64,000 nucleotides of DNA from an uncultured Gammaproteobacteria bacterium (GCA_964583685.1 CAZOVJ010000002.1:45055-109054), one strand, 5' to 3'; counted from the stretch's first letter, positions 3,275 to 58,576 are shown. Numbers and translations are program-made. The notes: a model not told the origin generated them from the sequence alone.

Positions 3275-3372
3275 AAACTATTTTAAAACCATAGGTGCAG
3301 TATTTCAATTTAGCCTGAAAAATGGTAAAATTCAAGCGCTATTGCGGGGCGGTGTAATGGTAGCACACTGCT
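3273..3372 (+). repeat. Partial duplicate of the tRNA-Gln promoter region and tRNA 5' half (tRNA positions 1-30); direct repeat of 6751-6850
   Basis: About 90 % identity to 6751-6850, including ttcaatttagcctgaaaaatggtaaaat and attgcggggYggtgtaatggtagcacactgct. Identity is lost exactly after the 5' anticodon-stem strand. Confidence 0.8.
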
Positions 3373-4951: not shown

Positions 4952-6199
4952 TTATTGATGCGCAATAAGGACAGAAGGAATGTTTCTGCCATTAATCCCA
5001 TTCCACTTAGGCTTAGCACCTGTGAAGTCAATATAGTGTAAATTGCCAAAAACACTGAAACCATTATTTTTATCTTTAACACAAAGTTTGCTGCTTTGCC
5101 CTGCATCACAAACCGCAGCCTGAACAAAATCAAATTTTTGAGTAAGTAGGTCATGAAGCTCATAGATGTTTAAACCTGATTGGTTTTCAATAAAAGGAAA
5201 AGAATCTGCCAGGAAAAAGATAACCTTACTTTTCGTGAAAAATATAATACTCCACGCTTTAAAAAAACCTTTCTCTAGAGGCTTGATCTTGCCGTCATAA
5301 CTAGGAATAACTTCTCTAGTTATTATCTTTCTAAGGGATTTAGCTTTTTTAGGCAAAGTAAAGCTTAATGTAACAGCATTATCGTGTCTTCTTACTGTGT
5401 AATTATCAATTACCACCTTATGGATCAAATCTCCAACCGTTATATCATTTTGCAATCTTTTATCTGTTTCGATTACATAGAGATAGTCAAATAAGCTCAA
5501 AGGCTTGGTGCTTTTCTTCGCAACAGAAACTTGTCCTTTTTTATTAAGATCAACACCTAAGAGTATTCTATCCTTAAAGCAATTCAACATCGTTGTCTTT
5601 CTAATCGCAATTCTTGCCTTGCGAATACTATTTTCGTATTTAAATCGAATATCCGAAACCCCATAAATAATGGCATCACAACCATTGTTTGGCCCTAAAT
5701 TCTTATAATTTTTGGCGCCAATCCATTTCAGTTCTATATTCCCTATAGCCATTTCGCCTTCTGCTTTCAAAAACCTAATTGAAAGTTTGCCCTGGCGTTC
5801 AATTAAACTAACTCTGCTATTGCTGGGGAACTGCAACACTTTTCCTTGGCTAACATACAAGTTAAGGGCTTGAACTTTTGGAACCCTACCCTTATCCGTC
5901 AGATATAAATTACAGGTATTTATACTGCCTAATAAATTGGGAGAAATCTCCTTATAAAATTTTTCAGTGAATTTCAATAATGAATTTGGCATAAAATCAT
6001 TTATAAGAGAAAATTTATATGTACTTTTTGGTATTTCGAGCCAATATAAATTAACAAATCTGTCACTAGTGGGCCAGTAAGTCTCCTGATTTAAAAAAGC
6101 ACATTTACCCATCCTTGTTCTTTTTCTATTAATTGGGCTAATTCCTTTTTGTTCGAGTAGTTTGTCTTCGTTATTAGCAAGCATCGGTTGTACATTCAA
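4952..6199 (-). CDS. Hypothetical protein (415 aa)
   Basis: Long ORF with no recognisable motif. Confidence 0.45.
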   Translation of the reverse strand: MNVQPMLANNEDKLLEQKGISPINRKRTRMGKCAFLNQETYWPTSDRFVNLYWLEIPKSTYKFSLINDFMPNSLLKFTEKFYKEISPNLLGSINTCNLYLTDKGRVPKVQALNLYVSQGKVLQFPSNSRVSLIERQGKLSIRFLKAEGEMAIGNIELKWIGAKNYKNLGPNNGCDAIIYGVSDIRFKYENSIRKARIAIRKTTMLNCFKDRILLGVDLNKKGQVSVAKKSTKPLSLFDYLYVIETDKRLQNDITVGDLIHKVVIDNYTVRRHDNAVTLSFTLPKKAKSLRKIITREVIPSYDGKIKPLEKGFFKAWSIIFFTKSKVIFFLADSFPFIENQSGLNIYELHDLLTQKFDFVQAAVCDAGQSSKLCVKDKNNGFSVFGNLHYIDFTGAKPKWNGINGRNIPSVLIAHQ

Positions 6200-6586: not shown

Positions 6587-6778
6587 TTACTCTGGTCGTA
6601 TGTTGTTGGTTGACCTATCCAGCTCGTTATCTGGAATTTCCAAATTTGATATAAGTTTTCTTGCTTCTTTGCGAGTTTTGTAAGACCCACCCAGATTCCT
6701 CCTTGTTTTCTCACTTAAAACATAATAACCATTTTTTCTTTTAATTATCATTAAAAAACCATAGATACAGTATTTCAA
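6587..6778 (-). CDS. Small hypothetical protein (63 aa)
   Basis: ORF only. Confidence 0.25.
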   Translation of the reverse strand: MKYCIYGFLMIIKRKNGYYVLSEKTRRNLGGSYKTRKEARKLISNLEIPDNELDRSTNNIRPE

Positions 6779-6812
6779 TTTAGCCTGAAAAATGGTAAAA
6801 TTTAAGTGTTAT

Positions 6813-6883
6813 TGCGGGGTGGTGTAATGGTAGCACACTGCTCTCTGGAAGCAGGAATCGGGGTTCGAATCCCTGCCCCGCAG
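6813..6883 (+). tRNA. tRNA-Gln (anticodon CUG); CCA not encoded
   Basis: Hand-folded cloverleaf: acceptor TGCGGGG/CCCCGCA with a U1-A72 pair, U8, D-stem GTGT/GCAC, anticodon stem CTGCT/AGCAG around loop CTCTGGA, T-loop TTCGAAT. A promoter-like TGGTAAAAT element lies upstream. Confidence 0.8.
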
Positions 6884-6989
6884 CACAGATTCAAGCGGCA
6901 CTATGTGGTCTCAAAAAAAGTCCTTATTTTTATTCTTGAAAAAAATTGATAATAAGCTATAATTCCAGGAAACGAATCAAAAGGCAGAA

Positions 6990-12559: not shown

Positions 12560-13036
12560 ATGAGAAGAACAGGAGTCAGAGCAGTAGCGGTATTAACAAA
12601 AGGTGACAGAATACTTTTAATTCATAGAACTCGAGATAGTAAGGAATTTTGGGTTTTGCCAGGAGGCGGAGTAGAAAAGGATGAGAAAATTGAAGAAGCA
12701 GTTAGCCGTGAAGTTGAAGAAGAGACAAGCATCAAGTGTAAAATTGTTAAATTGCTTTATACACACGTTTATTCTGACCTTGGTCACAAACAATATTATT
12801 ACCTGTGTAAATACGTTTCAGGAACCCCCAACCTGGGGAAATTCAATGAATTCTATACAATGAAGGAAGAAAATCAGACTTACGCACCAGTTTGGGTAAA
12901 CATTGGAAACTTGCCAAAAATATTACTTTATCCTCTGGAAATTCGGGACTGGATTATTCAAGATTACAGAACAAACTTCGAGCACCCGCCTAAATCCGCG
13001 ACGTTAAAATCCACAAATCTCCGTCAAGAAACATGA
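12560..13036 (+). CDS. NUDIX hydrolase (paralog A)
   Basis: Nudix box GGGVEKDEKIEEAVSREVEEETSI; about 70 % identical to the 26461-26937 product. Confidence 0.8.
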   Translation: MRRTGVRAVAVLTKGDRILLIHRTRDSKEFWVLPGGGVEKDEKIEEAVSREVEEETSIKCKIVKLLYTHVYSDLGHKQYYYLCKYVSGTPNLGKFNEFYTMKEENQTYAPVWVNIGNLPKILLYPLEIRDWIIQDYRTNFEHPPKSATLKSTNLRQET

Positions 13037-21055: not shown

Positions 21056-21976
21056 ATGGTTGAAAGAAAGCGTTTCGGTACGATAGAATCTTCCCCAAAA
21101 AGCAGAGGTTCAATCGATCTCGAACTTGGTGAAAGAATTAAGATCCCGTTTACTGGGGCAGAAATCATTTATGCAACTACTATCTCCGGAGATAAGGTGG
21201 TAGTTAAAAAACCACTAAACAACGATCGGGCTAGACATGAATGGGAAGGTCTTAATACAGTAGAATCGACAGGTATTTCTATCCCAAAACCTGTTGCGCT
21301 AATAAGCTATTCAGAGGACCAACTGGCTATTGTATCTAGTTATGTTGAAGGCGATAAATTGTATGATAAACCAAACCCTGATGTAAAAGCAGAAGTTGGA
21401 AGGCAAATTAAAAAAATGCACCAAAGTGCACAGATTGTCGGTGAAGATTGGCTATCTAGTGGTCGAAGCTCATTTCTTTACTATGATAGATATATTTATA
21501 GGTGGTCTAGGGGAAATATCGAAGAGCTGAAAGCAGACGGTAGGACTGCTTCAATATTAGGAGAACTTACCGATGCTGCGGATCAATTCTGTACGCACTC
21601 AGAACCAACATTCAACCACAACGATTTACATGATGGGCAAGTTATCGTAGATGGAAAAGGAAAACCAACAATCATAGATTTTGGAAATTGGACAGAAGAA
21701 ACTTGGATGAACGATATCGGTTATCACTTGTTTCACCTTGTCAGAACTGACAGAGTAGGTGCTGATGACTTTACAAACTTTTTAAACGGATACATGGAAG
21801 GCAAAAAAATGACTGATAAAGAAAAATCAAATTTGGCTTTTTACTTGCTTTTTATATCATCAAGAGCACTAAATTATTTTTACAGAAGACATAGCTCATA
21901 CTTGCCTGTTGCACAAGAGACTCACGAAAAAGTGTTGGCTCATCTTGAAAATGAATCAATCTGGAAAGATTATTAG
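21056..21976 (+). CDS. APH/ChoK-family small-molecule kinase (aminoglycoside-phosphotransferase-like)
   Basis: Catalytic loop HNDLHDGQVIVD and IDFGNW, the Brenner and DFG-like motifs of the APH family. Confidence 0.65.
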   Translation: MVERKRFGTIESSPKSRGSIDLELGERIKIPFTGAEIIYATTISGDKVVVKKPLNNDRARHEWEGLNTVESTGISIPKPVALISYSEDQLAIVSSYVEGDKLYDKPNPDVKAEVGRQIKKMHQSAQIVGEDWLSSGRSSFLYYDRYIYRWSRGNIEELKADGRTASILGELTDAADQFCTHSEPTFNHNDLHDGQVIVDGKGKPTIIDFGNWTEETWMNDIGYHLFHLVRTDRVGADDFTNFLNGYMEGKKMTDKEKSNLAFYLLFISSRALNYFYRRHSSYLPVAQETHEKVLAHLENESIWKDY

Positions 21977-22620
21977 CCCTTTTTTTCTAGAAGCTTAAAA
22001 TGAGAGTAATCGTTGATGTAATTTACTTTCCAGGATTTCCTTTGACTGCTGTAAATCAGGAGAGAGATACCTGTGTAGTTTATTGTTAGTGTTCTAATAA
22101 CTCTTGCCATCATCTCATCCGAATAATTATTCCCTAATATAACCATACTTATAAAACATCTGATAAACACGTCATGCGATACGACCAAAATTCGTTTTCC
22201 TTTATATTTTTTCCTTAAGAAACTTGAGAGTTTATCCGCTCTGCCTAGGACTTCTCTCACTGATTCCTCCTTATTTTTAAACTTCCAATCAAGATTTCTG
22301 TAGTTTGCGTAATATTCTTTAACATATTCTCTTGAAATCTTACTGTTTCTATCTGCTCCATACATTTGAGGTAATTGCATTCTTTCGTGTATGTAATCTA
22401 GAGTCTCTGTTTTAATTTTCAGATTACCAGAGAGAATTTCTGTAGTTTTTCTTGACCTTTCCCATTTACTTGAAAAGATTTTGTCTAATCGGGAGAATCT
22501 GGATCTTTGACTTAAAACCTCTGCTTGTTTTTCACCAAACTTGCCCAGTTTGGAGTCAGGAGTCTGCCACTGGTTTCTGGGGGTTTCGCTACTTGCGTGT
22601 CTAACTAAGAACAATAACAT
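21973..22620 (-). CDS. Histidine phosphatase superfamily protein (PGAM-like), last gene of the RiPP operon
   Basis: LFLVRHASSE (RHG-type) and ILVVSHDVFIR (SHG-type) motifs. Confidence 0.55.
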   Translation of the reverse strand: MLLFLVRHASSETPRNQWQTPDSKLGKFGEKQAEVLSQRSRFSRLDKIFSSKWERSRKTTEILSGNLKIKTETLDYIHERMQLPQMYGADRNSKISREYVKEYYANYRNLDWKFKNKEESVREVLGRADKLSSFLRKKYKGKRILVVSHDVFIRCFISMVILGNNYSDEMMARVIRTLTINYTGISLLIYSSQRKSWKVNYINDYSHFKLLEKKG

Positions 22621-22627
22621 CTTATCC

Positions 22628-23398
22628 TTATTGTACTGTTCCTAGTGCTATAACTCCAATGACGCTTTCATCAATCTTGTCAAAATCGAGAAGTCTGTTT
22701 AAGCCATCGTCAATAAAACCACCTATTGAACAAGCGCCCAACCCCAGCTCGGCAGCTAGTAAGCTAACATTTTGTGCATAGTGACCGTACTCTGTATAAA
22801 TATGCCTCAAACCTCTATCACCATACTTCTCCTCAGTTCTGTCAAATATCGACGATATTACTAGTAAAACAGAAGATTTTCGAATCCAAGGTTGGTTAAA
22901 CTGTTTCATTGTTTCTTTGAAAAAGGGTTTATCATATATCTTTTCCAAAGAATGGCTTTTAACATGATAGTGGTATATTGCTGGCAGCAAATCCTCAACT
23001 TTGAATACAAAAGGATAAATTTCTAATGGGTATCTTGCTCCAGCAGAAGGGTAAAATCGTTTGTCTTTTGTCTTTTTAAACGATAACCTCTTTAACCCGC
23101 ATGAGTAAAACATTAGATTGGAAAAAACAGCGGATTTAATGTTCTTTTTTGTAAATTCTCTTATTGACTCTCTTTTTGTTAATGCATTACTCAAGCTCCA
23201 TTTCGGTTTGGTGGGTGTAGGTAGTAAAACCTGCTCCATCCTGGGATAAGCTTTATAATAAACTTTCTTCCAATGCTCCGGCCAAGTGGAATAAGGTGTT
23301 GTCTTGTATTTACTGAAATCGTCAATCTTTATATTATTATTGAACTCCCTTGATTTAGAGATTTTCAGCGTTTTAATTATTTTTCCTAACTTGTTCAT
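22628..23398 (-). CDS. SagB-type FMN-dependent dehydrogenase (azoline oxidase; nitroreductase fold)
   Basis: RESIREF and PSAGARYPLEIY match the SagB-type dehydrogenase signature. Confidence 0.8.
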   Translation of the reverse strand: MNKLGKIIKTLKISKSREFNNNIKIDDFSKYKTTPYSTWPEHWKKVYYKAYPRMEQVLLPTPTKPKWSLSNALTKRESIREFTKKNIKSAVFSNLMFYSCGLKRLSFKKTKDKRFYPSAGARYPLEIYPFVFKVEDLLPAIYHYHVKSHSLEKIYDKPFFKETMKQFNQPWIRKSSVLLVISSIFDRTEEKYGDRGLRHIYTEYGHYAQNVSLLAAELGLGACSIGGFIDDGLNRLLDFDKIDESVIGVIALGTVQ

Positions 23399-23399
23399 G

Positions 23400-24710
23400 T
23401 TATAAAAATGGGTGAGGATAAGTGTTTAATTTTCCGGTATTTTTGTAGCCCAAACTACTCGGAACGTTGTGTAAACGCTCACCTCCCCGTAGTGGGTATT
23501 TTTCATTAAGATACACAGGTTGCATTCTCGGTATCACAACCTTCACTACTTTAAAAGGAATATCCATAAAGTATTTTGAGGTAATATCTTTGTAATATAT
23601 TTTATAACCCCTATCTTCTAGAGATTTTCTTAATATACGCAGCTGGTTTCGTGCAGAAAGATCCTTGTTTGCGGACTCTATTTTTACAAGATCTAAGTTG
23701 TTAATAAAAAAGTCTAACTTTGAGATCGATTTAGATGGGTACCAAAAAAGCCCTCGATTTTTAATTGTAGAATTTTTAATCAACTCTGTTTTTGAAATAT
23801 CTGATGGATTTTGTATATATGATTCGCGTATCCATGTTCTTGTATGAAATGCTTCATTGATCGAACCGATAATTGCACTTTCTATATCTAAGTGAGATTT
23901 TAAACCTACAGAAACAGCTTTACTAAATCCGGTTTCATCGACCACCACAGATGCAACAGCTGGAATGGGCAAATCTGTTCTTATATCTAAAGAAAATATT
24001 TTCAATCTATATCTCTGAGATATTTCTAATAGTTTCTTAACTTTTTCATTATTAGAAGACAAAAGATCATATCTTTTTGGTTTTAGTTTATTCAGATAAT
24101 AAATCATGAATGCATCTCTCTCAATAACTTCATAAATTCCACCCAATATTGCAGAATCTAGTTTAAAATGACCGGCAGCCCCAGTACTAATTGATGGATA
24201 GATGGCTGGCTCTTTTTTGACGGGACGGTAGGATAGGTAAATTACCTGGCAAGGGACGAGACAGCTCTCGTTAGTGTTCAAAGATTTCATTTCTGTCCAC
24301 CTAAACAATGAATTGTCGTCAATTCGAAAATTCTTATATTCATTTTGATGAAGTTGTTTGTCTGAAAAAAATATGAACTTCTCTGGATTAATGGCATTTT
24401 TATTGATTTTCGAATAGCTACCTACATAACTAACCTCTTTATTAAAAAAGGCGAAATTATCATATCTCTCTATCGCTTCAGCTAAAGCTTTTAGTACTGC
24501 CTCATATTGGGAGAAAAATGACACTCCTGAAGCCTTTGAGTGAAAGTGTGCTCCATCTTGCTTTAAATGTTTATCATTGATTGACGCTGAATAATACCAG
24601 AACTTAGGCTCATCATAATGTTGTCGAACTCTTTCAAAAGATTCGACTAATTTAATTTCTTGCAAGATGGGGCTGAGGTTTTTGATCAAACTGATAAAAT
24701 CTTCATTCAT
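23400..24710 (-). CDS. YcaO-domain cyclodehydratase
   Basis: GVSFFSQYEAVLKALAEAIERY fits the canonical YcaO ATP-binding motif. Confidence 0.85.
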   Translation of the reverse strand: MNEDFISLIKNLSPILQEIKLVESFERVRQHYDEPKFWYYSASINDKHLKQDGAHFHSKASGVSFFSQYEAVLKALAEAIERYDNFAFFNKEVSYVGSYSKINKNAINPEKFIFFSDKQLHQNEYKNFRIDDNSLFRWTEMKSLNTNESCLVPCQVIYLSYRPVKKEPAIYPSISTGAAGHFKLDSAILGGIYEVIERDAFMIYYLNKLKPKRYDLLSSNNEKVKKLLEISQRYRLKIFSLDIRTDLPIPAVASVVVDETGFSKAVSVGLKSHLDIESAIIGSINEAFHTRTWIRESYIQNPSDISKTELIKNSTIKNRGLFWYPSKSISKLDFFINNLDLVKIESANKDLSARNQLRILRKSLEDRGYKIYYKDITSKYFMDIPFKVVKVVIPRMQPVYLNEKYPLRGGERLHNVPSSLGYKNTGKLNTYPHPFL

Positions 24711-24772: not shown

Positions 24773-25009
24773 TTATTTACCTAGTCTATTTTCGGCACAA
24801 TCACAGCCACAGCTCGCACAGCTTGAACAGCTGCCACAACTACCACCACCACAAGCACAGCTTGAACAGTCTCCGCAACTCTGATCACAATCAGAGGCAC
24901 GTACTACACCTTTGGTAGCTTCTGCTTTAATATTTGTGTCGTTTTGCTGGGGCATGGCATCAGCTAAATCTCTCGTTTCTCTTATAACTTCACTCGTCAT
25001 TTTTCTCAC
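24773..25009 (-). CDS. TOMM/LAP-type RiPP precursor peptide (78 aa) with a Cys/Ser/Gly-rich core
   Basis: Core SCGDCSSCACGGGSCGSCSSCASCGCDCAENRLGK; a strong RBS GGAGGGGGTGAG lies 7 nt upstream; it sits immediately upstream of YcaO. Confidence 0.7.
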   Translation of the reverse strand: MRKMTSEVIRETRDLADAMPQQNDTNIKAEATKGVVRASDCDQSCGDCSSCACGGGSCGSCSSCASCGCDCAENRLGK

Positions 25010-25122
25010 CCCCTCCCATAGTTTGATGCGATATTATAACAGCAGTCAAAATATGTCAATTATACTTGAATGTAATATATTCAGCTCACCCATGACTTTT
25101 AAAGACGTTTTTTGAGTACTGT

Positions 25123-25905
25123 TCATTTTTTTACAGTTATCATAAATCTTTTAGAATTAGTTTTTATTCCCTTTCTGGTTTTGTTTTTTTCGATAAATCG
25201 TTCTAGAATCCCAAAATCTTTCTTGCTTTTTCCAAAACCTGGGATTATTGGAGTGTGTTTAAGCAGAAAAATTAAATCTTCTGAAGTTTTGTAATAGACA
25301 GTCGAATTGTATTCTTTCGCTTTGATATTTTTGAACCCAGCTTTTTTCAGACCTTTTATATATTTATTCTTAAGTGTTCCGTCTTTTAATCCATACGCCT
25401 GACCTCTTTTAAAAGCCCGCTTAATGTTAATTTTGTCACCTTCGCTAACTTGTTGTGTGAAAAAGTGACCACCTTTCACTAAGACTCGATAAACCTCTAG
25501 TGGATAAAAGTCACAATGTCTGCTGGTTACAATATCAAAGGAGTTATCAGGGAATTTAAGCTTTACTGAACTCATTCGAAGAAAGCGTACATTTTTATAC
25601 CCTGCTTTGTTAAGGTTTCTTTTTGCAGTGTTAACCATACTGACTGAATGATCTATGCCAGTTATAAACTTCACTTTTTCAGCTAACCTAAGAATTTGTT
25701 CTCCTCCTCCAGTTCCTATATCTAAAAGTTTGTCTGTTGGTTTTGCGATTTTCGCTACTTCCTCAATAAAATTCCATTTTTTACCTTCCTCGATCTTTTT
25801 CAATCGACTGAAGTCCCAACCAATTCGTTTACCAACTCTATTGTAAAATTTCTTGTAATTAACCTGACTCATGTTTTGATTATATCGCAAAGTGGTATCA
25901 TACAT
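25123..25905 (-). CDS. Class I SAM-dependent methyltransferase, first gene of the RiPP operon; the start may be the Met at 25872
   Basis: SAM motif LLDIGTGGGEQ. Confidence 0.75.
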   Translation of the reverse strand: MYDTTLRYNQNMSQVNYKKFYNRVGKRIGWDFSRLKKIEEGKKWNFIEEVAKIAKPTDKLLDIGTGGGEQILRLAEKVKFITGIDHSVSMVNTAKRNLNKAGYKNVRFLRMSSVKLKFPDNSFDIVTSRHCDFYPLEVYRVLVKGGHFFTQQVSEGDKINIKRAFKRGQAYGLKDGTLKNKYIKGLKKAGFKNIKAKEYNSTVYYKTSEDLIFLLKHTPIIPGFGKSKKDFGILERFIEKNKTRKGIKTNSKRFMITVKK

Positions 25906-25907
25906 TT

Positions 25908-26459
25908 ATGAAAGTCTATCTAATCAGGCATGCTATGAGTGTGGATGCAAAAAGAGGAATATCACAAAGAGATAACTCGCCATTGGCTAAAGATGCAATT
26001 AAAGATAAATCTATTAGTTATTATAAAGAATTAGAATTTGATAAAGTATTATGTTCTCCACTGCTTCGAGCGACACAAACAGCAGAAAAACTTTTTGGGA
26101 ATTTTGAAATTGTAGATTACATATATGAATATAAAAGACCTACAGAACTTGATGGAGTTCCAAGAAAAGAAGCTAGAAAATTCTGGGAAAAACATTGGCC
26201 GAAATCGAGTACGGATCCCAACTGGAGCCATGACGGCAGCGAAAGCTTCAATACAATGGTCACAAGGGCTGATAAGTTTTATAAGTTCTTAAAGGGCTTG
26301 AAGTACAAAAGAGTTGCCGTAGTTGGCCATTCTATATTTTTTAGACATTTATTGTCTATACATGCACTTGGTAAGAAAAATTACACAATTGACAAGTATT
26401 ACAAACTTTCCATGTTTATTAAACCCTATCCTCTGCACTACTTAAAGATGGAGCTATAA
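25908..26459 (+). CDS. Histidine phosphatase superfamily protein (PGAM-like), divergent from the RiPP operon
   Basis: YLIRHAMS, SPLLRATQTA and VAVVGHS motifs. Confidence 0.7.
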   Translation: MKVYLIRHAMSVDAKRGISQRDNSPLAKDAIKDKSISYYKELEFDKVLCSPLLRATQTAEKLFGNFEIVDYIYEYKRPTELDGVPRKEARKFWEKHWPKSSTDPNWSHDGSESFNTMVTRADKFYKFLKGLKYKRVAVVGHSIFFRHLLSIHALGKKNYTIDKYYKLSMFIKPYPLHYLKMEL

Positions 26460-26460
26460 G

Positions 26461-26937
26461 ATGACAAGAGTAGCAATAAGAGCTGTCGCAGTTTTAGTAA
26501 AAGACGATAAAGTATTGCTTGTACACAGAACTCGTAATGGAAAAGAATTTTGGGTTTTTCCGGGTGGAGGAGTTGAGGAAGGCGAAAATGTAGAAGAAGC
26601 GGTCGTCCGTGAAGTGGAAGAAGAGGCAAGTACTAAATGTAAAATAGTTAAACTTCTTTATACCCATATCTACTCGAATTTAGGACATAAACAATTCTAT
26701 TACCTATGCGATTACATATCAGGAAACCCAAAATTAGGTGATTTTAATGAATTAGAGACAATGAAAAATGAAGATCAAACTTATGAACCGGGTTGGATAA
26801 AAATTGAAAGTCTATCCAAGAAATTAGTCTATCCTTTGGAAATTCGAGACTGGCTGATTGAAGATTATAGGACGGATTTCAAAAACACACCGAGAGCTGC
26901 AACCTTAAAATCCACCGAGCTTCGTCAAGAGTTATAA
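26461..26937 (+). CDS. NUDIX hydrolase (paralog B of 12560-13036)
   Basis: Nudix box GGGVEEGENVEEAVVREVEEEAST; 158 aa, the same length as paralog A. Confidence 0.8.
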   Translation: MTRVAIRAVAVLVKDDKVLLVHRTRNGKEFWVFPGGGVEEGENVEEAVVREVEEEASTKCKIVKLLYTHIYSNLGHKQFYYLCDYISGNPKLGDFNELETMKNEDQTYEPGWIKIESLSKKLVYPLEIRDWLIEDYRTDFKNTPRAATLKSTELRQEL

Positions 26938-26942
26938 ATTCC

Positions 26943-27229
26943 TTTTTTATACTGTCTCATTTGTCTCATTTAGCCTCAAGTGTGATACACTTTTGACAAG
27001 CGGTTACGGGTCGGGAAGGTTCGAAACCCACCTGCTCAATTATCCCAGAATAGTACGGTAAGTATGGGATCAAGTGGGTCCAGACCCGCATGCTCAATTC
27101 GCTGGGAATAGTACCGTAAGTATGGGATCAAGTGGTGGCAGACCGACCTGCTCAATTAGCTCGGATTAGGAACCCCAGGTTCGATGTCCAGATATGGGAC
27201 TGGAAGGGCCCAGACCGACCTGCTCAGCC
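26943..27229 (+). repeat. Island repeat: L-module followed by four tandem R subunits (59, 59, 71 and 22 bp)
   Basis: ttttttatactgtctcatttgtctcat...ggttcgaaacccacctgctcaatt.../ggtccagacccgcatgctcaatt.../ggcagaccgacctgctcaattagctcggattaggaaccccaggttcgatgtccagatatgggactggaag/ggcccagaccgacctgctcagcc. Confidence 0.85.
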
Positions 27230-27252
27230 AAGACGGGCAGGTGTGTGACCAC

Positions 27253-28074
27253 ATGCTCGTGGTTCACGTTCCGATTGACATGGATAGCACAAAAGATTTC
27301 ATCTCAAAATACATCAAAAATTCTCTAATGATGCTTAGTGACGTGAACTCGTTTATTTTTTTAAGATCAAAAACCGGGCTACCAATCTTAAAAGAATATA
27401 AATTGGGCGGTGGGAATCACCTTTCTCTAATAGGACAATTTGCAATATTGAATTTTATTTCAAAGATTCACTTAGTGCTTAACATAGGTAGAGAGGCTTA
27501 TGTTGGATCCGAGAAAGTTATTAAAATTAAAGGGATCAAGAAAAGCGCTCCATCAGAAATAAAGAAATATGTGCGAGTGCCCAAAATAGGCGAAATAAAC
27601 GAAAAGCAAGCATTTGTGCTTCTTGTTATAAAATATCCGAAAGACATTGGCATACCCAAAATAAAAGATAAAATTGAAAAGATATGGGATGATATCCGAA
27701 ATAAAATCAGCCACCTTGCCACCATAGAAGTAGACAATATTGCAGTGACCTTGCACTATCCCACAATAGAATATCGCCAAATTTTCGAGGAAGCCAAAGA
27801 ATGGACCTTAGCTAAGCCTTTTGTTGTTATCAGTCCGGCTAATAGAGAAAAACACAAAGCTAAAATAAAAAGAGAGGATCCAGATTTGGAAAAGCCACTA
27901 TCAAAAATTATGTGGAATGCAGCCAGTGATATTGTGATTGTAGATTTTTTAAATATCGCCATACAAGAAATTTCCGATTGGATAATTGAAAATATAAATA
28001 AAGGTGTTTATCGCGAAGATAATATATCTGAAACAAAAGAATGGATAAAAATTAACTTTAGGTCAAAGGGTTAA
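27253..28074 (+). CDS. Hypothetical protein. The ORF track starts at 27184 inside the repeat; the first ATG after the repeat is 27253.
   Basis: ORF; Lys/Ile-rich. Confidence 0.45.
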   Translation: MLVVHVPIDMDSTKDFISKYIKNSLMMLSDVNSFIFLRSKTGLPILKEYKLGGGNHLSLIGQFAILNFISKIHLVLNIGREAYVGSEKVIKIKGIKKSAPSEIKKYVRVPKIGEINEKQAFVLLVIKYPKDIGIPKIKDKIEKIWDDIRNKISHLATIEVDNIAVTLHYPTIEYRQIFEEAKEWTLAKPFVVISPANREKHKAKIKREDPDLEKPLSKIMWNAASDIVIVDFLNIAIQEISDWIIENINKGVYREDNISETKEWIKINFRSKG

Positions 28075-28089
28075 TAAAATATATCAGTT

Positions 28090-28560
28090 ATGAGATTGCA
28101 AATATTAGATAAATTAACAGTTGAGTTGAAAAAAGAAATTAAAAGTGAAATTCAAGTTGTTTTTATCTTGTCGAAAATTAGAAAATTATTGGAGTGGGAG
28201 AATGCAAAGGGCAGATATAAGATCCTAAACTTTTATTGCAATTGGGTACTTCACAATAAAATCGACAGGACAGAGCCAGTTGGAAAAATCTTAAGAGATT
28301 TTATTGTTAATAAAGCAGATCGGTATAAACTAGTTTTTCATGAAGAATTTAAAAAAGAATTTAGAAGATTTCTGAAAGATTACAATCTTCCCGTTTTGAG
28401 CCCGATTTCGATGGAAAAATTTAAAAACGAACTAAATAAGGCACTATCAGAGACTCCAGTCGAAATAGTTATAGGAACTCGTTACAGAATCAAACTTGGC
28501 GACCCTGAAGCTGCGAATTTGAATTATGTAATTGTTCCATTGAAGGAACCCAAGACCTAA
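28090..28560 (+). CDS. Hypothetical protein; distant paralog of the 16094-16657 product
   Basis: See the paralog blocks listed for 16094-16657. Confidence 0.5.
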   Translation: MRLQILDKLTVELKKEIKSEIQVVFILSKIRKLLEWENAKGRYKILNFYCNWVLHNKIDRTEPVGKILRDFIVNKADRYKLVFHEEFKKEFRRFLKDYNLPVLSPISMEKFKNELNKALSETPVEIVIGTRYRIKLGDPEAANLNYVIVPLKEPKT

Positions 28561-28573
28561 AGATCCTTTTAGC

Positions 28574-28619
28574 GGGTTCGGGTTATGGGCTCATAAGGGT
28601 CCTGACCTGTAAGCTCAGC
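28574..28619 (+). repeat. Island repeat R-module
   Basis: cgggttatgggctcataagggtcctgacctgtaagctcagc. Confidence 0.65.
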
Positions 28620-28669
28620 AAATATTTCAACTTGGATTCGAACTCTTACTCCATTAAAATATAATAAAT

Positions 28670-29239
28670 ATGAGAAACTCTCCTCCAATAGTTATTCTGT
28701 TTAATGGTCCTCCTGGAGTTGGCAAATCCACTATAGCGAAAGAATTAGCAAAAAAGTCAAGATACGGTGCTTTCACTGATGTTGATAGTTTGAGACACCA
28801 TATATTTGGTGGAGTCGTTAGTGCAAGAAACCAGAAAAAAGACACTAATGAGTTTGAAAGACAAAGACTACTTGCAGCCGATAATGTATCGTGCATGGCA
28901 AATAACTATGTTAGATATGGATTTAACTATTTTATTTCTGACTTGGTTAAGATACCTTCAGTCATTAAGAGGTATAGAAATCATTTTAAAGATATTAATT
29001 TCTATCATGTAATTTTGAGGGCCGACATAGAAGAATTAGAAAAACGTGATGCTTCAAGAACTGGTCTGAAATTGCACGGAAAAGAAGTGATAGAAAAAAT
29101 AAATAAAGAAATGCGTGAGCTCGACTATAGTGACTGTGTAACCATCGACACAACAAACAAAAGTGTTCAAGCAACGGTCAACCTCGTTCTCGAAAAGTTA
29201 GGACTTAATTTTAAAGACGGACAGTTTTACTCTAAGTAA
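28670..29239 (+). CDS. P-loop NTPase / small-molecule kinase-like protein
   Basis: Walker A GPPGVGKSTIAKELAKKS; size and layout similar to CPT/adenylate-kinase-like kinases. Confidence 0.55.
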   Translation: MRNSPPIVILFNGPPGVGKSTIAKELAKKSRYGAFTDVDSLRHHIFGGVVSARNQKKDTNEFERQRLLAADNVSCMANNYVRYGFNYFISDLVKIPSVIKRYRNHFKDINFYHVILRADIEELEKRDASRTGLKLHGKEVIEKINKEMRELDYSDCVTIDTTNKSVQATVNLVLEKLGLNFKDGQFYSK

Positions 29240-29358
29240 TAAAACTACGATATTAGGTCAAATTGAGGATTAACACAGGTTTGCTTGTTGTAAAATAGGT
29301 TCGAAGTCTGCCCCCTCCTTAGGCGGGCAGACATGGTTCGCAGCCTAAACTAAAATAA

Positions 29359-29766
29359 ATGAAGAGAATTTTACATAAACTTGGCTTGAGTCCGGATAAC
29401 TCTATCGTTATCGGCTCGGGTATTCTTGAAGCGCTTGGGATACGGAAAAGTAAAGATATAGATATCGTCGTGAATCAAGAGGCTTATGACTCTTTGAGAA
29501 AATCTGGACAGTTTAATGTCACAGAAAACCACGGCCGCGAAATCCTCCATGATGATAAATTTGAGATTGGAACAAGTTGGACTGTATTGGGCAAAACTTA
29601 CAGATTTAAGGATTTTATTGACGAATCAATAATTGTCGATGGTGTCAGATACATAACAATCAACTTTCTATACAGAGCAAAGAAGAGCTGGATTCGTAGA
29701 AAAAACGCTCGTCAGAAAGATATAGAAGACGTAAAGTTAATTGAGGCGTACCTGAGCAAATTATGA
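29359..29766 (+). CDS. Minimal nucleotidyltransferase (Pol-beta superfamily) domain protein
   Basis: GSGILEALG...SKDIDIVV resembles GSxxxG...SDxDL. Confidence 0.5.
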   Translation: MKRILHKLGLSPDNSIVIGSGILEALGIRKSKDIDIVVNQEAYDSLRKSGQFNVTENHGREILHDDKFEIGTSWTVLGKTYRFKDFIDESIIVDGVRYITINFLYRAKKSWIRRKNARQKDIEDVKLIEAYLSKL

Positions 29767-29775
29767 GAACCAGAA

Positions 29776-29873
29776 GGGTCTAGACCGTCCTGCTCAATTA
29801 GCTCGGATTAGGAACCCCAGGTTCGATGTCCAGATATGGGACTGGAAGGGCCCAGACCGACAAGCTCAGCCAG
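29776..29873 (+). repeat. Island repeat: two R subunits
   Basis: gggtctagaccgtcctgctcaattagctcggattaggaaccccaggttcgatgtccagatatgggactggaagggcccagaccgacaagctcagcc. Confidence 0.8.
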
Positions 29874-29884
29874 CATAAACATAA

Positions 29885-30616
29885 ATGAATATCTCACAGC
29901 AAGTCAATACCATTGGTAACGCGTTTATGGACAGCCTCAAAAAAATCTTGGGTAAAAAACTGTATGGAGTATATATTTACGGAGCCGCAGCTTTCCCAGA
30001 TAAATTACCTACGGGAGATATCGACTTCCATGTCATTTTAACAAGAAGTCTTACAGAAAACGAAAAACTGCAGCTGGAAAAGCTTCACGAGTCTATTGCC
30101 CAAAGATTTCCGCCGCTTGGAGGAGAGCTCGATGGTTATTACATCCTCTTAAAAGATACTGTTAAGAAGGTCCCACCCAAAAGTCAAATGTGGAAACGAG
30201 CAACTGATACTTCATGGGCCCTACATCGTGAGCATATTTTAGCGGGCAGGTGTATTGTTTTTTACGGACCTGATCCAAAAGAGATATACCAGCCTGCCGA
30301 GTGGTCAGAGATTGAAACTGCACTATATGGCGAGTTGGACTTTGTTGAAAAAAATCTTCAAAATTACCCGGATTATTGCATTCTTAACCTCTGTCGCTTG
30401 ATTTATAGCTTTGAGACAAAAGACGTTGTTATTTCAAAAGACAAAGCATCTGAGTGGGCCATTAAAGCCCTACCTCAATGGAAAGAACTTATTAAACTCG
30501 CAAGAAAGTCATACGAACACCGGGCATCGCAGAAAGACAAAGAGTTCATGAGTTCTGAGGTTGGAAAATTTCTTGAATTTGCGAAAAAGCGCGTTCAATC
30601 TCAAACGAAAGAATAA
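29885..30616 (+). CDS. ANT/AadA-like nucleotidyltransferase (nucleotidyltransferase plus DUF4111-like C-terminal domain)
   Basis: GVYIYGAAAFPDKLPTGDIDFHVIL parallels AadA LYGSAVDGGLKPHSDIDLLV; length 243 aa. Confidence 0.55.
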   Translation: MNISQQVNTIGNAFMDSLKKILGKKLYGVYIYGAAAFPDKLPTGDIDFHVILTRSLTENEKLQLEKLHESIAQRFPPLGGELDGYYILLKDTVKKVPPKSQMWKRATDTSWALHREHILAGRCIVFYGPDPKEIYQPAEWSEIETALYGELDFVEKNLQNYPDYCILNLCRLIYSFETKDVVISKDKASEWAIKALPQWKELIKLARKSYEHRASQKDKEFMSSEVGKFLEFAKKRVQSQTKE

Positions 30617-30632
30617 AATTGTATATAGGCCT

Positions 30633-30658
30633 AAAAGTTCTAGACCGATCTGGTCAGC
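30633..30658 (+). repeat. Island repeat R-module (short)
   Basis: aagttctagaccgatctggtcagc. Confidence 0.6.
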
Positions 30659-30678
30659 AAAACAAAGTCTTTTTAAAT

Positions 30679-31428
30679 TTAGGCCTCAATTCTAGAAAAA
30701 AGATAGCTTCCAATTAATAACAAAATAATCCCAACAATACTTAACACCGAGACATCTGTTGTTAACCCAAAATGAGTGGTGCCTACCAAAACCTGCCTAA
30801 GGCCATCGACTCCGTAAGTTAATGGGTTGATATAGGAAACAACTTGGATTAGTCTGGGAACATTATTTAGCGGGAAAATGGCTCCCGATAAGAAAAAGGT
30901 AGGCATAACCAAAAAATTCATAATTAGCTGGAAGCCATGAAAATCTTTCATTAAGGAAGCAATTGCTGTTCCTAAAGCGCTGAATAGAAGGGCAACTAAA
31001 AACATCAAGCAAACTGCGAGAGGAATTATGGTAAGACTTTTAGGCTTAAATCCCACTAATAAAGTCAAGAGGAGGACTATAAGGCCCTGAAAAGTGGCAA
31101 CTGTTGCCCCGCCGAGTACTCTACCTAGAACAACCTCCAATCTTGAGACAGGGGCGACTAAGGTTGCTTTTAGAAAACCAAATTGTCTGTCCCAAATAAG
31201 TTCTATTCCCGAAAAGACAGCCATAAATAAGATTGCCTGACTTATAACACCAGGGGTTAGGAAGTTAATATAATTGCCACCACCGGCTTTTTCAAACACT
31301 GGCCCCAAACCAAAACCCAAAGCCACCAAAAACAAAAGCGGTTGGCCGATAGAGCCGATAATTCGAGATTTTGACCGCCAATATCTCTTAATCTGCCTCA
31401 ACCACATAATGTAAATAATATTAATCAT
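30679..31428 (-). CDS. ABC-2 type transporter permease
   Basis: 6-TM ABC-2 architecture; translationally coupled to the upstream ATPase. Confidence 0.7.
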   Translation of the reverse strand: MINIIYIMWLRQIKRYWRSKSRIIGSIGQPLLFLVALGFGLGPVFEKAGGGNYINFLTPGVISQAILFMAVFSGIELIWDRQFGFLKATLVAPVSRLEVVLGRVLGGATVATFQGLIVLLLTLLVGFKPKSLTIIPLAVCLMFLVALLFSALGTAIASLMKDFHGFQLIMNFLVMPTFFLSGAIFPLNNVPRLIQVVSYINPLTYGVDGLRQVLVGTTHFGLTTDVSVLSIVGIILLLIGSYLFSRIEA

Positions 31429-32243
31429 CTTTGTCTTCTCCTAAATCTATTCATTCTTAGTCTCGCTCTATCTTGTATACCAGCATTCTCTTCTCTAATA
31501 GTTTTACCGGTTAAAGCCAAGTAGGCGGATTCTAAAGTTTTAGTTTTGGTTTCTTTTTTGAGAGATTCCGTTCTTCCTTGGGCAATAATCTTGCCGTGAT
31601 CGATAATAGCGATAGTTTTGGCCATTTTTTCTGCCTCTTCCATATAATGGGTAGTAAAGAAAATAGTTGTTTGATATTTTTTGTTCAACTGTTTTATATG
31701 GTCCCAAATTTTATGTCTGGTTTGGGGGTCAAGTCCCAAAGTTGGCTCGTCTAGAAAAAGTAGTTTTGGATGATGGAGTAAGCCTCTGGCAATCTCGAGC
31801 CTTCTTCTCATCCCCCCAGAATAAGTTTTAACTAAATTATTCTTCCGGTTCCACAAATCAACAATTTCCAAGAGATCCTGGATTCTTTTTTTTCTTGTTT
31901 TTTTAGGAATTTTATACAGGACGCCATGGAATTCCATATTTTCATAAGCAGTCAACTCATCGTCTAAACTAGAATCTTGGAAAACAATTCCGAAGGACTT
32001 TCTCACCTCGTCTTGCTGGCTTAACGGGTCAAAACCGTTGACTAGCATCTGTCCTTCTGTTGACCTCAAAAGGGTAGTCAACATTCTGATAGTAGTTGTT
32101 TTACCAGCGCCATTGGGTCCAAGAAAGGCAAATATATCTCCTTTTTTTACTTCAAAAGAAATATTGTCAACGGCAACAAGACTATTGAACCTCCTGGTTA
32201 AGCTGTTAACCTTAATGATTGGCTGTTGTTTTTTATCAGACAT
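31425..32243 (-). CDS. ABC transporter ATP-binding protein. The start is taken at MSDKKQQPII (32243); the ORF track extends it to 32333.
   Basis: Walker A GPNGAGKTT and LSGG-type signature YSGGMRRR. Confidence 0.75.
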   Translation of the reverse strand: MSDKKQQPIIKVNSLTRRFNSLVAVDNISFEVKKGDIFAFLGPNGAGKTTTIRMLTTLLRSTEGQMLVNGFDPLSQQDEVRKSFGIVFQDSSLDDELTAYENMEFHGVLYKIPKKTRKKRIQDLLEIVDLWNRKNNLVKTYSGGMRRRLEIARGLLHHPKLLFLDEPTLGLDPQTRHKIWDHIKQLNKKYQTTIFFTTHYMEEAEKMAKTIAIIDHGKIIAQGRTESLKKETKTKTLESAYLALTGKTIREENAGIQDRARLRMNRFRRRQR

Positions 32244-32364
32244 ATTTTCTATAGAGAACGTTATAATTATAGAAGCAGGTTCTAGCTTTGTCCACAGTTC
32301 GCAGCAAAGAAATTTGGCCTTGAAAATTATCATCTAACTAGGCTGTTCGAACCCTCAGGATGTT

Positions 32365-33147
32365 ATGAAAAATTTAAGAAAATATGGAAAAGCCCCTTAC
32401 AACATTGTTGTTGTTCATGGAGGTCCTGGTGCACTTGGAGAAATGGCCCCTGTAGCTAGACATCTATCAAAGAAACAAGGAGTATTGGAACCGCTTCAAA
32501 CAAGGAATTCTATTAAAGAACAAGTTCTAGAACTCAAAACCATCATTGAAAAAAATGCCCAATTGCCAGTTACGCTTATTGGTTGGTCATGGGGTGCTTG
32601 GTTAAGTCTTATACTAACAGCAAAATATCCAAAATTAGTAAAGAAATTAATTCTCGTTAGCAGTGGTCCATTTGAGGTCAAATATGCAAAGCGGATAATG
32701 AATACTAGAATGAGCAGGCTTACAGAAGAAAAAAGAAAAAAGCTAAATTCTTTATTCGCCAATTTAGAAGATTTAAAAAAGAATGAGCAAAAATCTGCAT
32801 TTGATGAAATTGGAAGACTAATAAACAAAGCTGACTCTTTTAGTCTTATTCCCTATAAGAATGAAGTAATAAAAACACAGCCAGAAATTTATGAAAGAGT
32901 ATGGAGTGAGGCAAGTAAATTACGAAAAAATGGTAGTTTACTTGGGCTGGGAAAAAATATTCGCTGTTCAGTAGTAGCCATTCACGGAGATTTTGACCCG
33001 CATCCTGCAGAAGGGGTTGAGCTACCCTTGAAAAAAGTAATAAAAAACTTCCGATTTATTTTGCTGAATAAATGCGGACACCATCCTTGGTATGAAAGGT
33101 ATACGAAAGACGAATTTTATAGCCTTTTAATAAAAGAGGTGTCCTGA
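32365..33147 (+). CDS. Alpha/beta hydrolase (prolyl-aminopeptidase-like)
   Basis: HGGPG oxyanion motif and nucleophile elbow GWSWG. Confidence 0.65.
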   Translation: MKNLRKYGKAPYNIVVVHGGPGALGEMAPVARHLSKKQGVLEPLQTRNSIKEQVLELKTIIEKNAQLPVTLIGWSWGAWLSLILTAKYPKLVKKLILVSSGPFEVKYAKRIMNTRMSRLTEEKRKKLNSLFANLEDLKKNEQKSAFDEIGRLINKADSFSLIPYKNEVIKTQPEIYERVWSEASKLRKNGSLLGLGKNIRCSVVAIHGDFDPHPAEGVELPLKKVIKNFRFILLNKCGHHPWYERYTKDEFYSLLIKEVS

Positions 33148-33353
33148 ATTAAAAACTATAATTAAAGGCAGGAATTTCAATAAAATTTGAAATAAAATAG
33201 GTTCGATCAAAAAATAGCCCAAGTCAAGAAAAAAAGGGGCAGGCCGTGTGTGTAGTTATTGGTAGCGCTAGTGGATATAAAGAAGCGGTCGGTCAATGGT
33301 TTCCGCCCGAGCCTGATACGAAGGATGTTGAAGTAAAATGCGGTGTTCTAGAG

Positions 33354-33467
33354 TAATTTTATAAGGATAGAAAGGGACTAGACCGGGAAGCTCAATTAGC
33401 TCGGATTAGGAACCCCAGGTTCGATGTCCAGATATGGGACTGGAAGGGCCCAGACCGACAAGCTCAG
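33354..33467 (+). repeat. Island repeat: R-module with two subunits
   Basis: ttataaggatagaaagggactagaccgggaagctcaattagctcggattaggaaccccaggttcgatgtccagatatgggactggaagggcccagaccgacaagctcag. Confidence 0.8.
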
Positions 33468-33494
33468 TCAGTTACAAAACAGATTCCATAAATA

Positions 33495-33932
33495 ATGAAT
33501 AAAAAAATTGCTGTTTTAATATTTATTGACCATGAAGGAAACTTACTCCTTCAGGAAAGGGGTAATTATTCAAAGGCGGGAGAAAAGCATGGCTATTTTG
33601 GGGGAAACATTGAAAATGGAGAAAAACCCAAAGACGCATTAATAAGGGAGTTGAAAGAAGAATTGGGCTATATTCCTGATAATATTAAGTTCTGGAAAAA
33701 AGTTGATTTTTTGTGCACAGCAGAAGGAAAGTATAATAATTTCGGAGTTACTATTTATATATTTATTAGCCCTTTAACCAAAAAATTGGAGGATATTAAA
33801 GTATATGAGGGTGAAGACAAGATAATGACTACTCTTGACGAAGAGTTAAAAAGTCATAATATCATTGGTGGATACGAAATTGTTCTCAAGGAAATAAAAA
33901 ACCATTTTGCTGAGGTGTTGAAGTTGCTTTAA
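33495..33932 (+). CDS. NUDIX hydrolase (third copy, divergent)
   Basis: Nudix box GGNIENGEKPKDALIRELKEELG. Confidence 0.75.
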   Translation: MNKKIAVLIFIDHEGNLLLQERGNYSKAGEKHGYFGGNIENGEKPKDALIRELKEELGYIPDNIKFWKKVDFLCTAEGKYNNFGVTIYIFISPLTKKLEDIKVYEGEDKIMTTLDEELKSHNIIGGYEIVLKEIKNHFAEVLKLL

Positions 33933-41283: not shown

Positions 41284-41679
41284 ATGAGCATCGTTGACAT
41301 AATTATCAATTCTCTTCAAGAACTAGCGAATCAGTTGGTTACTTTTGTTCCCAAGGTTGTCATTGCCATCTTTATCTGGTTTATTGGTAAATCAATAATT
41401 AAATTACTTATCAGACTGGTCAAGAAAATTGATATCAAAGGAACGGAAATAGACAATAGAATTATTGATTGGCTAGCAAGAATAGTCTTAGTTTTGGGCA
41501 AATTTTTCCTGATTCTTATCATTCTCGACTATTTCGGAGTCGGCAGAACAATAATCAATGCGATTGTCAGTGGTTTGACTTTTGCCGTCGCCATTACCAT
41601 CGGTATTGCATTTGGTTATGCCCTAAAGCCAGAGGCCAGAGATCTTATTGACTTACTGAAAAAACAAATCAGGAAATAA
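41284..41679 (+). CDS. Small membrane protein (3 TM), MscS-N-terminal-like
   Basis: Hydropathy; resembles the 57397-58089 product. Confidence 0.4.
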   Translation: MSIVDIIINSLQELANQLVTFVPKVVIAIFIWFIGKSIIKLLIRLVKKIDIKGTEIDNRIIDWLARIVLVLGKFFLILIILDYFGVGRTIINAIVSGLTFAVAITIGIAFGYALKPEARDLIDLLKKQIRK

Positions 41680-58160: not shown

Positions 58161-58190
58161 AAAAGCTCGCGGAAAAGCGAGCTTTTTTCT
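58161..58190. terminator. Hairpin plus U-run terminator just 3' of rnpB (functional on the minus strand)
   Basis: aagctcgc-ggaaaa-gcgagctt, with T/A runs on both sides. Confidence 0.6.
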
Positions 58191-58576
58191 GGCTCTGGAG
58201 GATAGTAAGCCAGATTCTGTTTTAGTCCCGCCTGACGGCAGGTAGGTAATCATCTGTCTATGCCCTCACCTTGGGACGTTCCCCTCGCTGAGCGAGGAGA
58301 GTCGGGAAGGCATCCTAATGACGTCCCGGTCGGAGGTTGCAGCAGGGAGGATTGCCTCTTTTCACCCTCTTCCCTAATACCGTTAGGTATTAGGATGAGT
58401 CGTAGTCTCTGTGGCTCTAACTAGCGGTTACCCGTGTCCGATGTAAATCGGACCACCCTGCCTTCTGCTGTCTGGACTTTCCTCCCCGCCTAATTTTTGC
58501 CTTTCGCCTTTAAGTACTATTCGTACACGGCTCTAGGCGCAAATTTTGGCGGAGCGATTACCCCTCCTCCAGAGTA
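58191..58576 (-). ncRNA. rnpB: RNase P RNA (bacterial type A)
   Basis: The reverse complement contains GGGGAGGAAAGTCCAGAC (P4 5' strand), CAGGGTGG, GGTAACCGC, AGGGTGAAAAG and ACAGAATCTGGCTTAC (P4 3' strand). P1 pairs CTCTGGAGG with CCTCCAGAG. The region is GC-rich and the ORF track covers it only with short overlapping ORFs on both strands. Confidence 0.8.

Follow-up and report, generated by a model that had tools for sequence, protein, structure and literature searches.

A short cysteine-rich open reading frame directly upstream of a YcaO/SagB gene pair, in a 64,000-nucleotide stretch of DNA recorded as coming from an uncultured Gammaproteobacteria bacterium (the window), raises the question of whether it encodes the peptide that these enzymes modify and, if it does, what the modification may be. 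We consider it likely that this frame encodes, as a product of 75 aa, the A peptide from which a ribosomally made and post-translationally modified linear azol(in)e peptide (LAP) is formed by the mechanism proposed below, and that it belongs to a conserved five-gene cassette of a CPR-type bacterium.

The original prediction had placed a 78-aa ORF at 24773..25009. This ORF was confirmed on the minus strand, with the same translation, and its frame was retained, but its start was not. The mechanical ORF opens with a GTG at 25009, whereas the true start is almost certainly the ATG at 25000, the upstream GTG remaining unused, because an identical protein (P0001) has a public gene call of 75 aa, because the alignment of homologues begins at the same Met and because a conserved Shine–Dalgarno (SD) sequence, GGTGA, lies 5 nt ahead of this ATG. 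The gene accordingly covers 24773..25000 and encodes 75 aa (MTSEV...) followed by a stop codon. The peptide consists of a leader of about 35 aa, a core of 33 aa (S36-C68, SDCDQSCGDCSSCACGGGSCGSCSSCASCGCDC; 24797..24895, minus strand) that reads as an internally duplicated SCGxCSSCA(S)CG, and a short C-terminal tail, AENRLGK (24776..24796, minus strand), the sequence and length of which vary among homologues, usually with Lys as the last residue. Within the leader, the stretch L12-A-D-A-M-P-Q-Q-N20 (24941..24967, minus strand) corresponds to the family consensus ERxLxDAxPQQN.

The description of the core as Cys/Ser/Gly/Asp-rich was borne out (11 Cys, 9 Ser, 6 Gly, and 4 Asp). Its best 25-aa stretch contained 9 Cys, well above chance, while the next-best of 612 stop-to-stop frames contained 6 and the background frequency of Cys in the long ORFs of the window was 0.73%. 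No rival small Cys-rich ORF was found near YcaO and SagB, so that the possibility raised originally, that a different small ORF is the real substrate, found no candidate. Azoline sites had been assigned to C/S-G or C/S-C pairs. YcaO chemistry uses the carbonyl of the residue preceding Cys or Ser, and the sites have to be read as X-Cys and X-Ser instead. The GC-rich patch was also observed (48% in the core, compared with 38.8% in the window), but it was modest (top 7% of 120-nt windows), and the excess is due to the Cys, Gly, and Ser codons. The GC-richest spot of the window was found at 10.36-10.51 kb, in an unannotated ORF with a hydrophobic-looking translation.

Directly upstream of the precursor gene we found a promoter-like element, TTGACA-17 nt-TAATAT (25031..25059, minus strand), with 10 of 12 matches to the consensus, which presumably drives transcription; a TTGACA...TATAAT arrangement was also present upstream of the homologous precursor genes in two related loci (L004 and L084). 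The SD had been singled out as unusually strong, and this was correct: the extended SD GGGAGGGGGTGAG (25005..25017, minus strand) has a duplex energy of -15.5 kcal/mol with the anti-SD, whereas the median of the 67 genes of the window is -2.7, and it ranks second among them. The sole other gene with a comparably strong SD (AAAGGAGGTGAGA, -15.9 kcal/mol) lies at 41284-41679 on the plus strand. A GG(A/G)GGTGA element preceded the ATG in all seven loci compared (the window and six related ones). High expression, which had been deduced from the SD, is suggested rather than established by the promoter and SD signals. A hairpin over the precursor stop codon (-18.5 kcal/mol, z = -1.4) was considered as an attenuator and rejected, as it was not conserved in six related loci, and no intrinsic terminator was found between 21.8 and 25.3 kb.

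The gene that follows the precursor (23400..24710, minus strand) encodes a 436-aa YcaO cyclodehydratase of the SagD family, consisting of the YcaO domain only (PF02624, 7.5e-58). It scored 249.1 bits with the SagD-family model TIGR03604 (cutoff 219.25) and 83 with the thioamidation model TIGR03266 (cutoff 365). Among solved structures, the cyanobactin heterocyclases MusD, LynD, and TruD come closest to it in sequence, through their YcaO domains. The AF2 model (pLDDT 93) had the YcaO domain of LynD as best fold match (TM 0.79); it also fitted the thioamide-forming YcaO of M. jannaschii (TM 0.73), and comparison with McbD gave a TM of 0.56-0.58. The protein ends in ...YPHPFL, a variant form (PxPxx) of the Pro-rich C-terminal motif (PxPxP) that reportedly marks azoline-forming YcaOs; P.P.. 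was found at the C-terminus, as PHPF(L/P), in 68 of 82 relatives.

The next gene (22628..23398, minus strand) encodes a SagB-type FMN dehydrogenase of 256 aa (TIGR03605, 129 bits; cutoff 78.4), whose relatives in the PDB are the azoline oxidases CyaGox/ThcOx, BmdC, and McbC (E 5e-6 for the latter). A Lys-Tyr motif in SagB-type dehydrogenases is a hallmark of azole-forming synthetases. This dipeptide was present in 75 of 77 relatives, in 54 of them in a KY..RG context, and the SagB of the window reads EKYGDRG. SagB adjoined YcaO in 77 of 80 loci. From these sequence features, the two enzymes are predicted to be an azoline-forming heterocyclase and an azoline oxidase.

The relation of the peptide to these enzymes was assessed by comparing related loci. 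A word-based protein search returned 16 homologues of the precursor (49-110 bits), and further loci were found besides. From the enzyme side, a scan with a YcaO profile, with one genome per species, yielded 80 loci, mostly from Patescibacteria (Woese-, Roizman-, Davies-, Gottesman-, and Shapirobacteria and others) and also from DPANN archaea. In about 38 of the 80, the ORF that directly precedes YcaO, with the same orientation, encodes a small Cys-rich peptide, and 26 of these had a linked M16 or APH/histidine phosphatase gene.

Loss of the reading frame beside the same YcaO/SagB pair had been named as an observation that would refute the proposal, and the frame was found to be conserved. This precursor type was present upstream of every intact YcaO at least 61% identical to that of the window for which upstream DNA was readable (L004-L006, L084-L092, and L096); the cassettes that lack it are decayed ones only, with a truncated YcaO (L067 and L100/L101). 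Across 17 aligned precursors, ten Cys were invariant, as were most of the Ser, Gly, and Ala between them, and in the leader L12, D14, A15, and P17 were invariant and Q18 at least 90% conserved. A codon comparison of seven loci showed 241 synonymous and 131 nonsynonymous differences, the latter limited to a few positions, and two or more codons were used for 17 of the 21 invariant residues, a pattern of purifying selection. The maintenance of the frame in related loci despite many synonymous changes indicates that the peptide is a genuine precursor of the linear azol(in)e type, and, with a SagD-type YcaO and SagB directly downstream, supports the claim of a TOMM-type precursor for the adjacent pair.

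The extent of the conservation was unusual for such a peptide. Most RiPP families have a conserved leader and a variable core, while here the core was more conserved than the leader, on a par with the enzymes. Core identity to the window was 91% (L004), 79% (L005), 76% (L006), and 82% (L086), the corresponding YcaO being 80%, 62%, and 61% identical in the first three and 63% identical in the last, where it lies on the same contig of 5,509 bp. A short-core variant, DCNSDCASSCGCDC, with 5 Cys and an intact ERNLEDAIPQQN leader, was found in L092 (3931-4089, minus strand), where the adjacent YcaO is 64% identical; it seems to have arisen by a deletion inside the repetitive core.

Other core types were observed as well. 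At least four of them (SC-repeat acidic, Pro/Cys with CKPPPC, Asn/Cys with NCNNCGQNC, and Lys/Gly/Cys) occurred upstream of homologous YcaO/SagB pairs (at about 5650-5970 in L004-L083), all four with a leader motif resembling D-A/S/V-x-(E/P)-F. Near distant YcaO/SagB pairs (28-31% identity; Parcubacteria, Saccharibacteria, and others), there were proteins of 90-130 aa, in most cases encoded on the opposite strand, in which a hydrophobic N-terminal stretch is followed by an 'AHADAP'-like motif and by a tail rich in Cys, Gly, Ser, and Asp (L055, L056, L068 at 5410-5751, L075 at 5251-5637, L077, L079, and L082, YcaO being at about 6001). Judging from these features, they may represent another class of Cys-rich substrates, one that is anchored in the membrane.

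The block formed by the precursor, YcaO, SagB, a histidine phosphatase, and an APH-family kinase was constant between loci, while the flanks differed on both the upstream and the downstream side. The 215-aa histidine phosphatase is encoded by the last gene of the operon (His_Phos_1; 21973..22620, minus strand; PF00300, 3e-23) and the 306-aa kinase by a gene convergent with the operon (21056..21976, plus strand; PF01636, 5e-15); in L057 the order is YcaO-SagB-peptide-HisPhos-APH, all on one strand. An M16 (HxxEH) peptidase gene directly followed SagB in 26 loci, and the phosphatase and the convergent kinase take its place in the window and in a Woesebacteria clade. Three upstream genes were considered as further members, a methyltransferase (25123-25905), a second histidine phosphatase, and a NUDIX hydrolase. 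They were absent from homologous loci and were placed outside the cluster, because synteny ends just upstream of the precursor. In the decayed cassettes, L100/L101 (8322-8915) and L067 (6367-6792), only a fragment of YcaO was left, together with the phosphatase and the kinase; SagB was retained in L100/L101, and L101 had no precursor. This decay indicates that the system is dispensable and has been lost in some lineages.

We then considered how the leader would be recognized. A minimal LAP cluster normally has an E1-like or ThiF-like partner that binds the leader, and most azoline-forming YcaOs need one (PMC7136475). No match to ThiF, TIGR03603, or TIGR03882 was found among the 30 genes between about 7.9 and 35.9 kb, nor did such a partner appear among the conserved neighbour families of the 80 loci. 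An RRE hidden in the N-terminus of YcaO or SagB was considered and rejected, as structure models contained none and the N-terminus of SagB has no winged-helix fold. The partner could be encoded elsewhere in the genome. Stand-alone YcaOs that form an azoline or amidine are known from bottromycin (PMC7136475, PMC4603692), a system that resembles the present one in this respect and differs from it by its follower peptide, its single thiazoline, the lack of a SagB-type dehydrogenase, its actinobacterial origin, and an unrelated precursor. A leader motif, x-D-A-x-P/E-F/Q, is common to divergent CPR precursor types: it reads LxDAxPQQ in the family of the window, LRDAKPMM in Woesebacteria, MADAKEF in Pro/Cys-core types, and SDV(I/V)EF in Asn/Cys-core types. 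We infer that it acts as a recognition sequence, and its presence in all of these suggests one shared, partner-independent mode of recognition. The cassette includes neither a leader peptidase nor an exporter of its own, and a search with tblastn for an M16 leader peptidase elsewhere found none in the 64 kb.

These elements can be combined into a putative pathway. The near-consensus promoter and the extended SD would drive transcription and translation of the precursor, and its LxDAxPQQ motif would dock it straight onto YcaO/SagB, since no E1-like or ThiF-like RRE partner is present. YcaO is expected from its family to use ATP for the cyclodehydration of Cys, and perhaps also of Ser, with the carbonyl ahead of it, giving thiazolines or oxazolines, which the FMN-dependent SagB would oxidize to azoles. 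More speculatively, the six x-Ser-Cys sites might become fused oxazole-thiazole units like those of microcin B17. The target of the kinase and the phosphatase would most likely be the acidic, Ser-rich core or else the product, on which an O-phosphate, added and removed, could give transient protection, confer self-immunity, or form part of maturation.

Several features of this pathway have counterparts in known systems. Microcin B17 contains thiazoles and oxazoles, its x-Ser-Cys sequences give fused bis-heterocycles, and its leader peptidase is encoded outside the operon. McbA, like the present precursor, has a Gly/Ser/Cys-rich core that is modified by a YcaO (McbD) and an FMN dehydrogenase (McbC). 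However, microcin B17 also needs McbB, an E1-like leader-binding subunit, and has export and immunity genes (McbEFG), for neither of which the cassette has an equivalent; it lacks the kinase and phosphatase, and the homology is distant. The original prediction had pointed to heterocycloanthracin-like and SagA-like precursors as possible relatives, and neither membership was supported: the heterocycloanthracin/sonorensin model TIGR03601 gave 15.7 bits (cutoff 35; E 0.018), and no other curated precursor family and no Pfam family matched. The weak match is compositional, both having a repetitive Cys-rich core for a TOMM synthetase, whereas the leaders are unrelated and those clusters use an Ocin-ThiF-like partner (PMC7136475).

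The closest precedent is the set of 110 LAP clusters that Sharrar et al. 2020 (mBio, PMC7298704) identified by genome mining in 93 CPR genomes. As YcaO-plus-nitroreductase clusters were thus reported from CPR in 2020, the kind of cluster is already known, and the likeness includes a lineage that is probably of the same CPR type, a YcaO beside a nitroreductase/SagB, a small Ser/Cys-rich precursor next to YcaO, and a report that lists no E1-like partner. The example described there has a peptidase as third enzyme (in relatives, M16 after SagB), while the cassette of the window has no M16 and carries the histidine phosphatase and APH kinase in its place; its core is acidic and Ser-rich, compared with Pro-rich or basic in the M16-linked types. 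What appears specific here, as judged from the sequences, is the combination of a constrained core, no detectable partner or M16, a kinase and phosphatase that are always present, and a shared leader motif.

Both additional enzymes have conserved catalytic residues: RH...R...SH in the histidine phosphatase and, in the kinase, K51 and E62 together with H188-N-D190 in the catalytic loop and D208-F-G. Every clade A/B locus had the phosphatase along with the rest of the cassette. A metagenome search from the kinase side yielded 24 loci, in which HisPhos-SagB-YcaO lay beside the kinase wherever the flanking DNA was sufficient. The cores linked to APH and histidine phosphatase were acidic, Pro-free, and Ser/Thr-rich (D/E 14%, K/R 0, S/T 23%), those linked to M16 Pro-rich or basic (Pro 21%, K/R 9%, D/E 1%); this correlation is suggestive only, because it derives from about four independent clades. 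The literature that was searched contained no report of a kinase/histidine phosphatase pair in YcaO clusters. On the basis of the strict co-occurrence and of the chemistry of the two families, the enzymes probably add an O-phosphate to the Ser-rich core, or to the product, and remove it again. Formally, a kinase paired with a phosphatase is a futile cycle.

The two enzymes could act on a small molecule instead, or be a pair for immunity or regulation, while the YcaO/SagB LAP pathway, to which they would be linked only genetically, would otherwise be a plain one. Enzymes of the APH family canonically inactivate antibiotics by phosphorylating them, the solved structure nearest to the phosphatase is one that acts on free phosphoserine (4ij5, E 1.8e-6), and NCBIfam gave weak matches of the kinase to homoserine kinase and of the phosphatase to phosphoserine and alpha-ribazole phosphatases. 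All of these matches were, however, far below the family cutoffs, and the APH subfamily was found only beside the cassette, in two different gene orders, a pattern that points to a function connected with the peptide. We therefore regard a nonpeptide role as rather unlikely.

A bolder version of the proposed pathway is that the RRE-free YcaO/SagB pair, reading the short leader motif by itself, together with the Ser kinase and phosphatase makes a phosphorylated, perhaps only transiently phosphorylated, polyazole from the near-invariant core, which would act perhaps inside or on the CPR cell. This location is conceivable because there is no peptidase, no exporter, and a strong constraint on the sequence. 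Such a product might, for example, bind metals, have a redox function, or take part in host interaction, and would then not be a classical secreted bacteriocin. This version as a whole is tentative and, in our estimate, unlikely.

A further possibility is a hybrid peptide, in which the kinase would phosphorylate core Ser for beta-elimination, leaving dehydroalanines next to the azoles, or lanthionines if Cys thiols add to form thioethers. APH-like (PF01636) phosphotransferases are indeed used to dehydrate Ser/Thr of RiPPs: TsaC phosphorylates them in thioamitides, as happens likewise in class V lanthipeptides (LxmK), and these kinases pair with a HopA1-like lyase (PMC8153245). In common with those modules, the cassette has a PF01636 kinase, with intact catalytic motifs, in a YcaO-containing cluster with Ser/Thr/Cys-rich cores; the kinase travels with Ser-rich cores, and in the window 9 Ser are interleaved with the 11 Cys. 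No HopA1-like lyase (PF17914), LanC-like cyclase, or other lyase was found, however, among the genes of the cassette or up to about 15 kb away, and the YcaO is of the azole type with SagB, whereas that of thioamitides is of the TfuA-dependent thioamide type. The conserved partner of the kinase is instead a histidine phosphatase. Enzymes of this family form a phospho-His intermediate and thereby hydrolyze phosphoesters; they do not eliminate the phosphate. Such a hybrid thus seems quite improbable.

It is more improbable still that the peptide is an unmodified, metallothionein-like metal binder, or that YcaO makes thioamides or amidines and no azoles. The CxxC-type spacing of the 11 Cys would suit metals, and YcaO enzymes are known to form both of the other groups, the thioamide-forming M. 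jannaschii enzyme being among the fold matches mentioned above. Against a metal binder, there was no match to a metallothionein family, nor to any Pfam family even at E <= 10; against thioamides, there was no TfuA, the SagD-family and thioamidation scores fell on opposite sides of their cutoffs, and YcaOs that form azolines typically end in a Pro-rich motif like the one present here. Both options are difficult to reconcile with the strict adjacency of YcaO and SagB, a dehydrogenase being needed only for the oxidation of azolines. A spurious, untranslated low-complexity ORF, as its shortness, biased composition, and lack of a Pfam family might suggest, is practically incompatible with the predominance of synonymous divergence, the invariant Cys pattern, the conserved promoter and SD, and a position conserved in dozens of loci.

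The preferred reading, that of a LAP precursor modified by YcaO and SagB, has a broader interest. Although genomes of CPR/Patescibacteria are very small, five genes for the modification of a peptide, with an almost invariant substrate, have been retained in this lineage. With four enzymes and one 75-aa peptide, it is a compact and testable system, which bears on leader recognition by azoline-forming YcaOs that have no RRE partner and on the role of a kinase and phosphatase in the maturation of azole peptides or in self-protection. We know of no product of a CPR LAP cluster that has been characterized to date. The leader motif and the gene signature YcaO-SagB-HisPhos-APH can be used to mine further members.

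The host would be an uncultivated, ultra-small bacterium of the Patescibacteria/CPR type, judging from relatives labelled Patescibacteria or Woesebacteria and from the 0.81-Mb chromosome-level record of one of them. L004, L006, and other relatives are labelled 'Clostridia bacterium' or 'uncultured Gammaproteobacteria'. This probably reflects mislabelled MAG taxonomy, because of their Patescibacteria-like gene content and of the 810-kb chromosome-level record (OZ246419.1).

The region upstream of the cassette (25123-33932) was not syntenic in relatives and was dense in resistance-like genes and genes for the modification of small molecules. It encodes the SAM methyltransferase and second His_Phos_1 protein already mentioned, an alpha/beta hydrolase, NUDIX hydrolases (26461-26937 and 33495-33932, a third one lying at 12560-13036), a CPT/AAA_33-like kinase (28670-29239), an AadA_C nucleotidyltransferase (29885-30616), and an ABC-2 exporter pair (30679-32333). 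Elsewhere in the window, a direct repeat of 93 nt (3280-3372 and 6750-6842; 91% identical, 3470 nt apart) spans the upstream region and the first 30 nt or so of a tRNA-Gln gene (6813-6884). From this arrangement, a small element may have inserted at the tRNA gene, consisting of the approximately 3.5 kb between the repeats, with four ORFs on the minus strand. A bacterial class A RNase P RNA (58190-58573, minus strand; 113.9 bits) confirmed the bacterial chromosome context.
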